From a virus (lineage: Duplodnaviria > Caudoviricetes): a DNA stretch of 35,294 nucleotides. Positions 527 through 8,796 of the stretch are shown piece by piece (the first letter of the stretch is position 1; the number at the start of each line of letters is the position of its first letter). Where the stretch lies: IMG/VR virus record IMGVR_UViG_3300043394_000364, positions 1 to 35,294 of that record, one strand, 5' to 3'. The translations under genes and the position numbers were made by a program. The notes beneath the pieces are model-generated. The model searched no databases. It was not told where the DNA came from and saw only the letters and a program-made list of their open reading frames with translations.

Positions 527-554
527 ACTATAGCACCGTTACGCGTAACGTCAA
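527..554 (-). promoter_or_regulatory. Leftward sigma70-type promoter with palindromic operator in the spacer
   Basis: Minus strand TTGACG-16nt-TATAGT with extended TGn; perfect 14-bp palindrome CGTTACGCGTAACG at 537-550. Confidence 0.7.
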
Positions 555-626
555 GGGGGGCAGGCAACTATTTTTCACTGTTACATCTGCCATCGGCGGG
601 CCTGCAGCGCAAGCATGCAACCAGCG

Positions 627-698
627 CCCTAACCCCCGCTCAAACCGAGCCCTTACGGCCCTGCGGGCCTTCAGGTCCGGTTTAGCTTTACGTTAGGC
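627..698 (+). mobile_element. Integron attC-like recombination site (attC-1, slightly degenerate)
   Basis: R'' CCCTAAC, 4-nt spacer, L'' GCTCAAAC with extra C, inner hairpin GGCCC-TGC-GGGCC, L' GTTTAGC, 5-nt spacer, R' GTTAGGC; 72 bp. Confidence 0.75.
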
Positions 699-703
699 GT
701 CTT

Positions 704-1183
704 TCAGCGCTCACACAGCGGGTTGTCGCCTGGCTTGTGGTAGCAGCCGCAGCCGCTGCATAGGCCCATGCTGCATTTAGCGCGCGCCACGCCCAACGCC
801 CGCAGCTTCGCATCGATATCAGCCACCGGCTCGCGCATGAAGTCAATGCTGATTCCTTGTTCTTGCCCGAAAGCCTCGCCGTCGTCCATGTAGGTGTGCG
901 GCATCGCCACTCGGGCAGCTAGCAGGCGGCGCAGGTGGCGCTCATCAGCGCTTGCTGGCATGCCGTGGCGTTCCAGGCGCCACACTGCGCAGCGCTCGCA
1001 CTCTGGCTTGCCGGAGCACTCCGTCAGACCGCAGGCACTGGCGCGCTCCGGTGCATCACTGGTCAGCATGTATGGCTTGCCGCCCAGCCAGTGAACACCC
1101 AGCGCGCCAGCGTCCGTGCGCTTCGGCTCCAGCCGCCCAACCAGGCAGTCAACCGGAGCTTCGCCGGCAGCATTCGAGTCCAT
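704..1183 (-). CDS. Cys-rich hypothetical protein lying between two attC-like sites (putative cassette gene)
   Basis: 159-aa ORF with AAGGAG RBS. The stop lies a few nt from attC-1 and the start lies inside attC-2. Confidence 0.7.
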   Translation of the reverse strand: MDSNAAGEAPVDCLVGRLEPKRTDAGALGVHWLGGKPYMLTSDAPERASACGLTECSGKPECERCAVWRLERHGMPASADERHLRRLLAARVAMPHTYMDDGEAFGQEQGISIDFMREPVADIDAKLRALGVARAKCSMGLCSGCGCYHKPGDNPLCER

Positions 1184-1225
1184 CGTTACTCCTTCGGGCT
1201 CAGCCCGGTTACCGCCACGTTGGGC
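1135..1225 (+). mobile_element. Integron attC-like recombination site (attC-2, canonical geometry)
   Basis: R'' GCCCAAC, 5 nt, L'' AGTCAACC (extra C), GG[A]GCT (extra A) ... AGCCC, L' GGTTACC, 5 nt, R' GTTGGGC; R''/R' perfectly complementary; 91 bp. Confidence 0.85.
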
Positions 1226-1257: not shown

Positions 1258-1713
1258 CTAAAACGGGATGTCGTCGTCCATGTCGTCAAACGCAGCGGCT
1301 TTGCGGGGCGATGGCGGTGCAGGCGCACGCGAGACGGGCGCGCTTCGTTGCGCTGGTGCAGGCGCGGCGCCCTTGTCTTCACCGCTGCCAAGCAACACAA
1401 GCTCGGTCGCCATGATCTCGGTGGTGTAGCGCTCGACGCCGTCTTTGTCGGTCCACTTGCGGGTTTTCAGGCGGCCTTCGATGTAGACCTGCTTGCCCTT
1501 CTTAACGTACTCGCCAGCCACCTCTGCCAGGCGCTCGAAAAGGGCGACGCGGTGCCATTCCGTCTCCTCCTGGCGCTCTCCGCTGGTCTTGTCCTTCCAA
1601 CTGCGGCTCGTGGCCACCGATAGGTTGCAGATGGCCGCGCCTCCGGTCGCATATCGCAACTCAGGATCCTTGCCAACGCGCCCAAGGATGGTCACTCTAT
1701 TCACACTGCTCAT
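1258..1713 (-). CDS. ssb: Single-stranded DNA-binding protein
   Basis: SVNRVTILGRVGKDPELRY...TEWHRV...EGRLKTRKW; acidic DDDIPF tail. Confidence 0.97.
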   Translation of the reverse strand: MSSVNRVTILGRVGKDPELRYATGGAAICNLSVATSRSWKDKTSGERQEETEWHRVALFERLAEVAGEYVKKGKQVYIEGRLKTRKWTDKDGVERYTTEIMATELVLLGSGEDKGAAPAPAQRSAPVSRAPAPPSPRKAAAFDDMDDDIPF

Positions 1714-2336
1714 GATGGCTCCAGGGTTGTCATGATTTCAAATGCGGCATCCACGTCAGACAGGAAGGCGCGCGCGGCTTCTTCAACCTTGGCCACCTCC
1801 TCAAGCGCTGGTGTGAAGCGGCGAATGAACAGGGCGCGCGGCCCCTTGACGCGGGGGTCGAAGGACACAAAGTCCACCCACTTGCGGCCAGTGCAGGCTA
1901 GCTGGGCCAGCATCTGCGGCTTGTGCTCCTCTGGGACTTCGCCGGCCAGCGTCCAGGCCACATGCTTGGACGTGGTTGGGCACTTGACTTCGATCAATCC
2001 CTCGTCCTCCACAAGCCCATCAGGCGATGCGCCAAAGTTGTCGATGTCGAAGTGGTCGAAGAAGAAACAATCCGCCACCGTTCGGCCCGTGACGTTGCGA
2101 TAGGCGGCCTTGGCTAGCGGCTCGTGGTCGATCCCCCACTGCATCGGGGGGGACACGTGGTGGGGCACGATTACATCCGTCATGCGCTCGGCCACGAGGT
2201 CGAGGAGGTATTTGCGGCGCGTCTCCGAAGGCTTGCCGCCTCGCCCATTCGTGAGCACGTCGGCCATTCGTGATGCTGTCAGCTTGCCCGTGCGGGCAGC
2301 GAACCATCCCGCGCTGCCTTGGAGATTCTCGCTCAT
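1710..2336 (-). CDS. YqaJ/lambda-exonuclease family protein
   Basis: WFAARTGKLTAS, MQWGIDHEP, GASPDGLV, IEVKCP, QMLAQL motifs. Confidence 0.93.
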   Translation of the reverse strand: MSENLQGSAGWFAARTGKLTASRMADVLTNGRGGKPSETRRKYLLDLVAERMTDVIVPHHVSPPMQWGIDHEPLAKAAYRNVTGRTVADCFFFDHFDIDNFGASPDGLVEDEGLIEVKCPTTSKHVAWTLAGEVPEEHKPQMLAQLACTGRKWVDFVSFDPRVKGPRALFIRRFTPALEEVAKVEEAARAFLSDVDAAFEIMTTLEPS

Positions 2337-2989
2337 GGCTGCGCCGCTTCGATCGCTGCCAGCGCCTTCAGCCGCTCGTCCTTGGCGGCCTTGAGCACGG
2401 CGTATGCGGCGCCATCCTGCGCAGCGCGCGCGGCGTGGTCGGCCTCAGCCCACTCCGTGCGCAGCAGGTCACGCGATTCGGCGCGCAGCAGCCGGGCCTT
2501 AAACCGAGCCACATCGGCTGGCGGCATGGGCGGCGTCTCGGCCCCCTCGCCGTCGCCGCCTGCCTCCGGGTCCATCGCCATCGTTGGCACCACGAACTGT
2601 TGAAACAGGGCCGTGCGGAAAGCGACCGACTGCGCCTTGGTCATTGCCTTGTCGCCGCTGTCCATCGCTTCGCCGTAGCAAGCGCAATCAACGAAAGATC
2701 CGTCCTCAGCGCTGGCGAACCGGAACACGCCACGCACCAAGGCAAACCGGGTCGCCTTGCCATCAGCCGGCGCACCCTTGACCCGCTCCACAAACTGCGC
2801 CTCGCTGTAGGTGGGCGTGACTGTGATCTTGTGCGCGATGAGGATCGCTGACATCTGATTCATGGCGGCCTCAATTCCCCGGTACTGCACGGCTGCGCCG
2901 CCAAGCGATGCAGACTTGTCCTTCGCGATGCCGGTCTTTGCGATGTCGGCCATCGCCCGGTTGATCGCGGCATGAATTGCCGTAGTCAT
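2333..2989 (-). CDS. erf: ERF-family single-strand annealing recombinase
   Basis: Start at ATG 2989 (MTTAIHAAI); YRGIE...YGEAMDSGDKAMTKAQSVAFRTAL motif; adjacent to exonuclease and ssb. Confidence 0.85.
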   Translation of the reverse strand: MTTAIHAAINRAMADIAKTGIAKDKSASLGGAAVQYRGIEAAMNQMSAILIAHKITVTPTYSEAQFVERVKGAPADGKATRFALVRGVFRFASAEDGSFVDCACYGEAMDSGDKAMTKAQSVAFRTALFQQFVVPTMAMDPEAGGDGEGAETPPMPPADVARFKARLLRAESRDLLRTEWAEADHAARAAQDGAAYAVLKAAKDERLKALAAIEAAQP

Positions 2990-3126
2990 TTGGCCCCCGT
3001 TGAAGCGATCATGCTGAATGAAAGCACCGCCCACGCGATGATGCAAACTCCTATCACCACCAGGCGCCAGACGCCAGATGCGTCTTTGTCTCTCGGAACC
3101 TTTGGCATGTCGTCCTCGCTCATCAT
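2986..3126 (-). CDS. Small single-TM membrane protein (46 aa)
   Basis: Read manually: MMSEDDMPK...VWRLVVIGVCIIAWAVLSFSMIA; start/stop overlaps at both ends. Confidence 0.55.
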   Translation of the reverse strand: MMSEDDMPKVPRDKDASGVWRLVVIGVCIIAWAVLSFSMIASTGAK

Positions 3127-3296
3127 CAGTGACGTGTGGTCTTGCGCTGCACGCGGTTGCGCGGCTCAAGGACCCAGCCCTTTTCGGACTGTTTAAGCAC
3201 CTTGATGCTGGCCACAAGTTGCGCCTGCAACGCTGGGCTCTTGGGCCACTGCTTCTGTGCGTGCGCCCACAGGTCGGCGACTTCGGTTTTTGTCAT
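3126..3296 (-). CDS. Hypothetical protein (MTKTEVADLW...)
   Basis: C-terminal part of ORF 3126..3362; TGATG coupling with neighbours. Confidence 0.55.
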   Translation of the reverse strand: MTKTEVADLWAHAQKQWPKSPALQAQLVASIKVLKQSEKGWVLEPRNRVQRKTTRH

Positions 3297-5296: not shown

Positions 5297-5542
5297 ATGC
5301 AAACACAACAACAACACCAAGTCCTTGGGGTGCGCCCCGGGGCACTGCTCACGCTGGCCGGTGGCTCGCATGTTGAGGTTGCGGACTACGGTATTGACGA
5401 GGACGACCGGCCCGTCGTGATGCTGCGCAACGTCACAAAGCACGGCAATTACAAGGGCGAGGCTTGGCCAATGCGGCTCACGGCGCTGCGTGCAAACCTG
5501 GCAGCGGCAACACAGCGTTTCGCGCGGGGGATGGCGCGATGA
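5297..5542 (+). CDS. Hypothetical protein
   Basis: 81 aa with GGAGAGG RBS. Confidence 0.6.
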   Translation: MQTQQQHQVLGVRPGALLTLAGGSHVEVADYGIDEDDRPVVMLRNVTKHGNYKGEAWPMRLTALRANLAAATQRFARGMAR

Positions 5543-5781
5543 AAGCGCAGCCGCTACCACCAGGGCAAAGCTACAGCATCGGGTGGCCGCCTAGGCGCGC
5601 TGAGGCCATCGCAGCTGCGGCGCCGCAGCCTGGCCACAGGTCGAAGGCAGAGCTGATGGCCAAGGCCAAAAAGCAGGCAGGCCCGCGCGAAGGCAACGCG
5701 TTTGACTCGCACAAGCAAATCATGCCCGGCACGCCCACGCATCCGGTGCCGGAGAGCGTCATAAAGGGGGGCGGGAAATGA
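5539..5781 (+). CDS. Hypothetical protein (MKAQPLPPG...)
   Basis: ATGA overlaps at both ends. Confidence 0.55.
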   Translation: MKAQPLPPGQSYSIGWPPRRAEAIAAAAPQPGHRSKAELMAKAKKQAGPREGNAFDSHKQIMPGTPTHPVPESVIKGGGK

Positions 5782-5981
5782 GCGCCGCCGACAACCCGAC
5801 GACAGACGCCGCGCGCCTGAAGGCCGTCGAATCCACGCTGGCCGACATGGCCGCAGCCATCGCAGCCATGGCCCAGTCCCAGCAAGCCATGGCGTTTGCG
5901 ATGCAGCAGCAGCACGAGTTCCTCCAGCGCATGGCCGACATGGAAGCGGCCGACATGGCGGGCGAGGGCGGGACACACTGA
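5778..5981 (+). CDS. Hypothetical coiled-coil protein
   Basis: 67 aa, coupled to neighbours. Confidence 0.6.
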   Translation: MSAADNPTTDAARLKAVESTLADMAAAIAAMAQSQQAMAFAMQQQHEFLQRMADMEAADMAGEGGTH

Positions 5982-6955
5982 TGGACGCGCGACCTGCCCC
6001 ATTGGTGCCCGAGGTCGTTGACCTTCGGGACTTTGCTTTCCTCCCGCTGGAGGTCGTGCGTCTGCGTGACTCAGGCCTTACCGCAAAGGCATCAGGCGAT
6101 GAGTTCCGCGCCGCAGTGCTGCTTTGGTGCGCCGCTTGGCACCAGACGCCAGCCGCAAGCCTGCCAGACGACGACGAAGAGCTCGCGAACCTGTGCGGGT
6201 ACGGCCGCACTCCGAAAGAGTGGGCGAAGATCAAACAGCGTGCGCTAACGGGCTTCGTGCTGTGCACTGACGGCCGGCTGTATCACAAGATCCTGTCCAG
6301 CAAGGCCATCGAAGCATGGCGCGGCAAGCTGCGGCAGCGCTGGGTCACAGAGACAGCGCGCGTGAAGAAGCACAACAGTCGCCACAACACCGCGCACGTT
6401 GTCCCTGAGTTTGAAGTGTGGGTGTCCCTCGGTTGTCCCCAGGGACAAACGCTACACGTCCAGGTGACAGAAGAGGGAAGTCCCCAAACTGTCAAAGTAG
6501 ACAGGCCTTCCAAGAGAGAGGGACAGGGACAGGGAGAGAGAAAGGGACAGGGAGAGGGAGAGGGACAGGGAGAGAAAGAAGAAGAGCTTGGCGCTGCGAA
6601 GCTTCGCCCCAAACGCAAAGCGCCGGCCAACTTCGCCCCATCCCCGGAAATGCTCGCGTGGGCATCGACCGAGTGCCCATCGGTAGACGCCAAAGCGGAG
6701 ACGGCGAAATTCCTGGATCACACCTTCGCTCGCACCATCACCGATTGGGACGGCGCGTGGCGCAACTGGCTGCGCAAGGCAAGCGAGAACATGCCGCGCC
6801 GGCCAGGCCAAGCCATGCGCAACGGCCCACCAGACGATGCCGCCATCCGGGCCTACAACGCCCGCGCCACAGCCGAAGCCGCACGGATGCTGGGCATTGC
6901 CCCACAGCCGCAGCCAGAACCGCCCCTTGACCTCTTGGAGGCCTGCAATGCGTGA
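5981..6955 (+). CDS. Replication initiator (DUF1376/YdaU-like)
   Basis: VDLRDFAFLPLEVVRLRDS...LWCAAWHQTPAASLPDDD...DGRLYH; C-terminal DWDGAWRNW; O-gene position. Confidence 0.8.
   Translation: MDARPAPLVPEVVDLRDFAFLPLEVVRLRDSGLTAKASGDEFRAAVLLWCAAWHQTPAASLPDDDEELANLCGYGRTPKEWAKIKQRALTGFVLCTDGRLYHKILSSKAIEAWRGKLRQRWVTETARVKKHNSRHNTAHVVPEFEVWVSLGCPQGQTLHVQVTEEGSPQTVKVDRPSKREGQGQGERKGQGEGEGQGEKEEELGAAKLRPKRKAPANFAPSPEMLAWASTECPSVDAKAETAKFLDHTFARTITDWDGAWRNWLRKASENMPRRPGQAMRNGPPDDAAIRAYNARATAEAARMLGIAPQPQPEPPLDLLEACNA
6400..6585. repeat. TGTCCC/GGGACA iteron-like repeats and purine tract (putative origin)
   Basis: TGTCCC at 6400, 6423, 6434; GGGACA at 6442, 6520, 6526, 6544, 6562; located inside the initiator gene. 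Confidence 0.55.
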
Positions 6956-8147: not shown

Positions 8148-8413
8148 CAGACAACCAGTGCACCTATTGCGGGCAGATCGGCCACCGCGCCAGCAAGTGC
8201 CCGACACGGCCTGTTGATTCAGTCATCCCTGACGTGCTCGCAGACCTGCGCACAAACGGCATCAGATCCGTCCAGCTCCTGGCCAAATCAATCGGCGCAG
8301 ACATCGGCCCAGTGTGCCGCGCAGTCGAGCGACTGCAAACGCTGGGAGAAGTCAGATACCGCAACCCGCGACACAAGCGCGCAACAGGATTCGGGTGGGA
8401 GGCCTGCCGCTGA
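8144..8413 (+). CDS. CCHC zinc knuckle plus putative winged-helix protein
   Basis: CTYCGQIGHRASKC; SVQLLAKSIGADIGPVCRAVERLQTLGEV. Confidence 0.6.
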   Translation: MTDNQCTYCGQIGHRASKCPTRPVDSVIPDVLADLRTNGIRSVQLLAKSIGADIGPVCRAVERLQTLGEVRYRNPRHKRATGFGWEACR

Positions 8414-8796
8414 TGATGCCTCGCGCGCCAAAACCAATCGACCCGGCCGCAGCCCTGCGCAAAGCCACCGCCGCAGCAAACGCAGCCAAGCTGTCGGCAC
8501 CACTGCTGCTGCAAATCAGGATGGCCCAACTCGATGAGGGCATGTCCCTAGAACACGTTTTCCACCCAACGCGAAAGTGGCGCCTTGACATCGCATGGCC
8601 ACACAAACGCCTGTACGTCGAGATTGAGGGCGGCGTCTGGACCGCAGGCAGGCACGGCAGAGGCGCCGGCATCGTGGCCGACATGGAAAAGCAAAACGCG
8701 GCCGTGGTGCTTGGGTGGAAACCTCTGCGCGTTGCAGTAAACCACATCACATCGGGGGAGGCCATCACATGGATACGGCAAGCACTCACAACATGA
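8413..8796 (+). CDS. PD-(D/E)XK endonuclease (Vsr/DUF559-like)
   Basis: FHPTRKWRLDIAWP...VEIEGGVW...GRHGRG...DMEKQNAA...LGW. Confidence 0.8.
   Translation: MMPRAPKPIDPAAALRKATAAANAAKLSAPLLLQIRMAQLDEGMSLEHVFHPTRKWRLDIAWPHKRLYVEIEGGVWTAGRHGRGAGIVADMEKQNAAVVLGWKPLRVAVNHITSGEAITWIRQALTT

Follow-up and report, generated by a model that had tools for sequence, protein, structure and literature searches.

A reversed integron-type cassette in a phage early operon and the likely translation start of its gene inside an attC hairpin

The stretch of DNA analysed here (35,294 nt, called the window throughout) quite probably carries an integron-type gene cassette in reverse orientation within the early operon of a phage. 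According to this interpretation, the attC site precedes the gene on the mRNA-sense strand, cassettes are exchanged at the G|TT core of the site, and a Shine-Dalgarno (SD) sequence and an ATG in its loop likely start the gene. The hairpin of this site, attC-2, is likely to be both the joint at which genes are swapped and the place where translation of the gene begins. The window is a whole virus record, linear and 97% complete, in which a scan of 40 ORFs uncovered head, portal and ejection genes of the podovirus type as well as a repressor-like gene and a replication gene. The early operon runs leftward (1258..3217, minus strand), encodes an ERF-like annealing protein, an exonuclease and SSB, and lies upstream of attC-2. 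The reversed cassette region is located directly 3' of ssb, and the operon would provide a transcript running into attC-2.

The attC-2 site comprises 91 nt (1135..1225; top strand plus, bottom or recombinogenic strand minus, the latter being the mRNA sense) and was recognised by a geometry scan, DNA folding and a covariance model. On the plus strand, R'' (1135-1141) and L'' (1147-1154) are separated by a 5-nt spacer, as are L' (1207-1213) and R' (1219-1225), and the crossover triplet G|TT occupies positions 1219..1221. The R boxes GCCCAAC and GTTGGGC form 7/7 pairs and fit RYYYAAC / GTTRRRY. The bottom-strand fold and the alignment to the model both have the L'/L'' boxes, an unpaired central spacer and a variable loop, and the fold leaves a G at 1150 and a T at 1157 unpaired as extrahelical bases. 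Folded as DNA, the minus strand has the greater stability (-23.5 vs -19.8 kcal/mol for the plus strand) and it carries the extrahelical bases; the mRNA-sense strand is therefore the bottom strand, as the initial annotation had proposed. The covariance model, which was trained on 21 attC sites next to bacterial intI genes and on no phage sequence, assigned 40.3 bits (rough E 6e-9) to the minus strand of attC-2 vs 16.8 bits to the plus strand. Over the window and a related locus, L025, it ranked 1135-1225 first and a second site, attC-1, next (627..698, plus strand; 72 nt; 23.1 bits; crossover G692|T693), which has no start codon inside. In both sites the geometry scan and DNA folding revealed a more stable minus strand and an extrahelical G, a base that our scanner and search patterns require, so that its conservation in the site sets described below is no evidence. 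Both lengths fall within the 55-141 nt range of attC sites (PMC7370490). Thus, 1135-1225 is a canonical attC site. The two sites are on the same strand, 437 nt apart, in a record in which no integron integrase was found, which corresponds to a CALIN; a complete integron is not present, as there is no intI beside the array and no tyrosine recombinase (PF00589) in the linear, 97% complete record.

The putative excisable cassette extends from the G|TT of attC-1 to that of attC-2 (693..1219, plus strand; 527 bp) and fits an assembly unitig, 665-1248, between graph branches. Its gene (704..1183, minus strand) is antisense to the cassette and encodes a protein of 159 aa with the N-terminus MDSNAAGEAPVDCLVG; the stop codon lies 5 nt ahead of the R' box of attC-1. 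The coding strand was assigned with a codon model built from 14 annotated window genes, which gave 15.4 for this frame and at most -7.4 for each of the other five; the model was validated on its training genes alone (108/111), and 24% of integron sites come out as reversed with it. A classical gene cassette, with a top-strand ORF ending before its attC, was rejected because the coding signal is on the bottom strand. The 223-codon top-strand ORF 952-1623 was likewise discarded as a gene, owing to its antisense overlap with ssb and its negative codon-model score. The longest ORF was given up as a strand test in favour of the codon model since GC-rich phage DNA misled it into calling the cassette gene classical.

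The 159-aa protein consists of an attC-derived leader and several small modules that are seen in other uncharacterised proteins. Pfam contained no match, a single weak PHROG match was obtained (E 0.018), and the best Atlas hit (0.86) was unnamed, with a low pLDDT of 0.44. No useful relatives were found among cultured phages and plasmids, and 80 metagenome ssb loci yielded 2 sites and no close relative. A GKPY segment, a Cys-rich segment, a DGEA core and a Cys-rich tail make up the mosaic of the protein, and these modules turn up in different combinations among the homologs. The core module also occurs in ordinary genes: of 15 loci that were found with an alignment chosen by leader, 12 have no attC near the gene, and in L186 alone the gene starts inside one. 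In another locus, L002 (2940-3025), the 3' arm is all that remains of attC in the leader of a relative, and this gene begins exactly where the upstream one ends; it is possibly a domesticated cassette.

The start signals of the gene are located in attC-2 itself. On the minus strand, a Shine-Dalgarno-like AAGGAG in the variable loop (1189..1194, read from 1194 to 1189) is followed by the five bases TAACG and by ATG at 1183-1181, and the last base of codon 16, at 1136, is one position within the boundary of the site. The description in the initial annotation, which had placed the ribosome-binding site (RBS), the start codon and the first 16 codons within the hairpin, was thus accurate; about the first half of these codons is in the loop and the remainder in the L''/spacer/R'' arm. 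No ATG, GTG or TTG occurs in frame between ATG-1183 and Met39. Residues 17-38 are conserved with synonymous changes, and ATG-1183 is the sole canonical start above them. Over residues 15-38, the numbers of identical, synonymous and non-synonymous codons were 13/6/4 against L001 and 12/7/4 against L002, which amounts to about one comparison because L001 and L002 are nearly identical to each other. Since no canonical start lies between ATG-1183 and Met39 and residues 15-38 are conserved, with more synonymous than non-synonymous changes, initiation most likely takes place upstream of Met39, within attC-2; a true start below position 1135, which would have refuted the initial annotation, is thus disfavoured. 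It is very likely that translation of the cassette gene starts inside the site, and ATG-1183 would be the codon used in vivo.

The same overlap recurs in other phages. The search pattern for viral attC sites contained neither ATG nor SD and provided 128 of an estimated ~230 loci, from which the scanner retained 157 unique sites in 85 loci among the matches listed. The control came from one candidate host order, which we take to be Burkholderiales; of 401 genomes sampled, 150 had intI. We picked 40 intI-adjacent regions on long contigs of the intI-carrying genomes, and 37 of these regions contained sites, 135 in total; in 132/135 the bottom strand coincided with the intI strand, as anticipated. 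Sites of 80 nt or more were considered long, and an in-loop ATG was counted when no stop interrupted its frame over 30 or more codons beyond R''. Among the matches listed, 131/157 viral sites were reversed vs 32/135 integron sites (Fisher p 8e-26), an in-loop ATG was present in 78/128 long viral vs 10/73 integron sites (p 3e-11) and an in-loop ATG with SD in 58/128 vs 0/73 (p 9e-15); the sites are related to each other rather than phylogenetically independent, and the p-values overstate their independence. Shuffling the loops of the listed viral sites gave a mean of 18.9 in-loop ATGs (maximum 32) vs the 78 observed and, for SD plus ATG, a mean of 2.8 (maximum 9 in 300 shuffles) vs 58. The mirror test on the top strand found 15 in-loop ATGs in 124 listed viral sites, and none occurred in the 29 listed viral sites under 80 nt. 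An earlier, stricter pass had pointed in the same direction (reversed, 47/52 viral vs 19/54 integron sites; in-loop ATG, 21/52 vs 1/54), and for its viral loci picked independently of the cassette gene the values were 22/25 and 6/25. Run on 372 kb of shuffled DNA, the strict scanner produced 2 false hits.

Not every reversed cassette starts in the loop. Of the 50 long viral sites among the matches listed that lack an in-loop ATG, 9 have an in-loop GTG or TTG with SD; an SD and ATG just past R'' were found in 24/50 of these long sites and in 16/29 short ones, vs 1/63 and 2/62 in integrons. Over all viral sites listed, in-loop starts amount to 78/157, or 87/157 when GTG and TTG are included. Reversal is therefore the general rule and the in-loop start only its commoner subtype.

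These numbers bear on the view that the window contains an ordinary host cassette, brought in by off-target integration at an attG site (a SALIN or a small CALIN), with an incidental ATG in the loop and the true start farther downstream. IntI does insert cassettes at genomic attG sites (10.1101/2022.09.11.507474, available text), and ORFs beginning with a chance in-loop ATG occur in 10/73 integron sites and in about 19/128 shuffled loops. The polarity of the gene is opposite to that of host cassettes, however, the SD enrichment exceeds both the shuffled loops and the integrons, ATG-1183 has no canonical competitor above the conserved residues, and homologs with either frame of the leader remain in frame with the same downstream module. 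This view is disfavoured, and we regard it as very improbable. The claim that the recombination site doubles as a translation-initiation module is instead supported by the SD and ATG in the loop, the coding constraint above Met39 and the recurrence.

The initial annotation had also predicted that proteins from such cassettes share an attC-derived V/L-D-x-x-V-G/R signature near the N-terminus. It is present in 47 of 52 dereplicated frame-0 leaders, but it is not universal, since the 78 in-loop starts among the matches listed use two frames through R'': 58 give the V-G/R type and 20 an S/N-x-x-L-G type. The third frame, in which R'' brings a stop, is unused. For the cassette protein, the best 120 of 166 homologs were used (119 without the query). 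In these listed homologs, the strict motif was found in 25/119 (shuffle mean 0.8, maximum 4) and was absent from the other 94; a relaxed form was present in 34/119, and a leader of the L-G type, the same DNA arm in another frame, in 12/119. An alignment of 39 of the 120 homologs, picked by leader and therefore illustrative rather than a count, shows both leader types running in frame into the same downstream module. A C-terminal Pro-Asn, a loose pattern scored without a null, occurs in 50/119 listed homologs, a count to which we attach no weight.

The site also supplies the stop or a C-terminal tail to the upstream gene: in viral arrays, upstream genes stop at the core TAA or just before the core, or run into the site as a Pro-Asn tail. 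In attC-2, the Pro-Asn frame that enters via R' is closed by a TAA (1186..1188, minus strand) 2 nt before ATG-1183, likely a coupling stop. In 45 of 71 dereplicated sites from the matches listed, this frame meets its first stop between -12 and +5 relative to the in-loop ATG, vs 14.4 expected (maximum 24 in 500 shuffles), and ATGA overlaps number 25 vs a null of 6.9. A comparison of frames (48 vs 3 vs 3 of 78) was dropped as a test of coupling in favour of these loop shuffles because it is biased, the conserved TAA triplets closing the other two frames early. The distribution of stops suggests translational coupling through the Pro-Asn frame. In the window, ssb ends before attC-2, so that coupling would be only latent in this arrangement. 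According to predicted folds of 58 viral sites, the stretch from RBS to ATG is more open than the remainder of the loop (0.59 vs 0.45), and a hairpin that presents the RBS would fit the family; the SD of the window is predicted to be paired in a small local hairpin. Gating of the RBS by the hairpin, which the initial annotation had also raised, would be hypothetical. According to a review, hairpins of attC block ribosomes, and ORFs inside attC relieve this block (PMC8876359, available text). Initiation within the loop may avoid the block that is known from bacterial arrays.

That the core of attC-2 is a recombination point is indicated by the locus L025, which was found via ssb. It is 100% identical to the window from 5713 to 1219 (4,495 bp), diverges right after G1219 of G|TT, and has two other reversed genes and two attC sites beyond; past AA|, the two share one base only. 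The runs X1 and X2 represent a single sample, which may be the very one that yielded the window, and are therefore not independent; they contain unitigs that branch at 694/695 and at 1219. In X1 and X2, respectively, the cassette unitig 665-1248 has a depth of 26 and 62 vs 46-47 and 75-93 for its flanks, and the L025 allele, with a depth of 7-13, is connected through the TAA|C of the last L025 attC to a unitig with depths of 43 and 83. From its depth, this unitig would be the continuation of the window past position 1. The first segment of the alternative allele (L025 4489-4560) folds into a hairpin that pairs R-like boxes and lacks the canonical L-box geometry; it may be either a degenerate attC or resident DNA with an attG-like target, and the L025 allele is therefore more than a plain replacement of one cassette by another. 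Homology of the window ORF 3-92 to the first L025 gene had been guessed at and was unsupported on comparison.

Pairwise comparisons extend the observation to other loci. Among pairs from 250 viral sites, 19 have everything in common, 37 the site only, 5 the downstream DNA only, 5 the site with the downstream gene, 2 the upstream flank only and none the upstream flank with the site alone. Thus, attC moves with the downstream gene, or both are replaced next to a constant upstream flank. In 12 of 12 pairs from the matches listed, the point at which similarity switches is no more than about 11 nt away from AA|C; several of these pairs are non-independent (four from L395/L397 and three within L186). 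Moreover, one nine-site array, L186, contains the same cassette twice (5474-5992 and 8215-8726) with different neighbours.

Exchange could alternatively be the work of the phage's own homologous recombination, ERF and exonuclease acting on the conserved arms, while the attC-derived hairpins now serve at the RNA level only, in translation start and coupling. The genes for ERF, exonuclease and SSB lie directly upstream, no integrase was found in the record, the L002 relative keeps its 3' arm alone before a related gene, and none of the contigs, in which rare variants are dropped, contained the excised junction 692/1220. A single shared base beyond AA| is too little for homologous exchange between the window and L025, though, and the breakpoints concentrate at the R' core instead of being spread over the arms. 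We consider this alternative unlikely; recombination in the flanks could still shift whole alleles after the original insertions.

Under site-specific exchange of reversed cassettes, a host integron integrase likely acts in trans at the core of attC-2. The mobile unit would run from the C of AA|C through the loop, the arm and the gene to the next RYYYAA, so that every reversed cassette brings its own RBS and a leader of roughly 13-27 residues. An upstream gene would stop at or just before the core, or enter as a Pro-Asn tail that stops on or beside the next ATG and couples translation whatever the order of cassettes. The recombinase might also be a dedicated phage or satellite enzyme. The reversed pool does look phage-specific, attC-2 aligns better to viral than to integron sites (best scores 123 vs 82.5), and our recombinase screen covered the window's own record, whose missing part could encode such an enzyme. 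Yet the consensus of the viral arms closely matches that of bacterial integron attC, and intI is carried by the candidate host order at the frequency given above. A dedicated enzyme appears to us quite improbable. The record has a repressor-like gene and no tyrosine recombinase; an integrase may belong to another family or lie in the missing part.

Several features of attC-2 are those of integron attC sites as described in the available text of Nivina 2016 (PMC5027507): R and L boxes, extrahelical bases, an unpaired central spacer, a variable loop, a more stable bottom strand and exchange at the GTT/AAC core. In contrast to integrons, the phage gene is on the bottom strand, 3' of the site in the direction of transcription, the site itself contains the RBS, the start and the first codons, and no intI was found in the record. 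It is already published that attC sites and integrase-less attC clusters occur in phages and that IntI1 recombines phage attC sites, five of six having been active (Qi 2023; PMC9892861, available text). That source terms TJE1 and PH101 typical arrays, with TJE1_attC1 in classical polarity, unlike the window, and notes divergent attC directions in P12002L; in its available text, "start codon" is absent and both mentions of "overlap" concern primers. SALINs resemble the window in having cassettes outside integrons, made by IntI in trans, and a phage array could plausibly have been founded by attG insertion; the cassettes are ordinary ones, and reversed attC-initiated genes were not seen in the available text (10.1101/2022.09.11.507474). 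Effects of attC on translation are known as well (Jacquier 2009, via PMC8876359, available text): attC hairpins in mRNA affect ribosomes, and short ORFs in attC couple the next cassette. In that case the mRNA corresponds to the top strand and the ORF encodes a short peptide, whereas the phage cassette's own gene would start in the loop of the bottom strand. Synthetic protein-coding attC sites, in which one sequence is recombining attC and coding DNA at once, still recombine (Nivina 2020; PMC7439510, available text), and the phage sites would be natural counterparts of these engineered ones. Full-text literature searches, with few subscription journals covered, gave no description of reversed phage cassettes or of starts inside attC. 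New from the window are the crossover swap in an otherwise identical phage and, for both the start and coupling, matched nulls with controls.

A broader reading, to which we give an even chance, is that phages own a pool of reversed cassettes and borrow the host IntI for shuffling early genes. Here, attC would serve three uses (recombination, start and leader, stop or C-terminal tail), any order of cassettes would be coupled, the recombinogenic strand would be on the lagging-strand template, and host defence cassettes would be antisense. The 18-nt iteron-like repeats at 6513-6584, within the replication gene, are a probable origin; an origin to the right would put the bottom strand on the lagging-strand template. 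As the leading-template orientation limits excision (PMC5371416, available text), the orientation of the phage cassettes would favour turnover. If so, reversal would lead by way of the lagging-strand template to fast turnover, and host defence cassettes landing in a phage array would, speculatively, be antisense and silent. Integron-type shuffling with opposite polarity would explain, by a concrete site-specific process, how the early regions of phages become mosaic, and recurrent N- and C-terminal motifs of unrelated hypothetical proteins would be accounted for as translated recombination arms. One cassette survey retained only ORFs with an attC overlap of <= 50 nt (PMC7370490), so that genes starting inside attC can be filtered out. 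The window is a directly testable case, with two crossover-bounded alleles of one slot in one sample.

Some minor observations concern attC-1 and its surroundings. In run X3, a variant of attC-1 has a compensatory C/G to G/C change in the loop stem (window 660 and 666); in run X4, the site is identical, with other DNA left of 628. The last attC of L025 and attC-1 have 19 identical bases over R'' and flank (L025 5181-5199, window 620-638), and their loops differ. A sigma70-like promoter match lies 3' of attC-1 (527..554, minus strand; consensus match only), with a 14-bp palindrome (537-550) between its hexamers. The unitig 490-694, which holds the promoter match and attC-1, is deeper than both neighbours and has a branch at each end, and this block may therefore be common to another genome.
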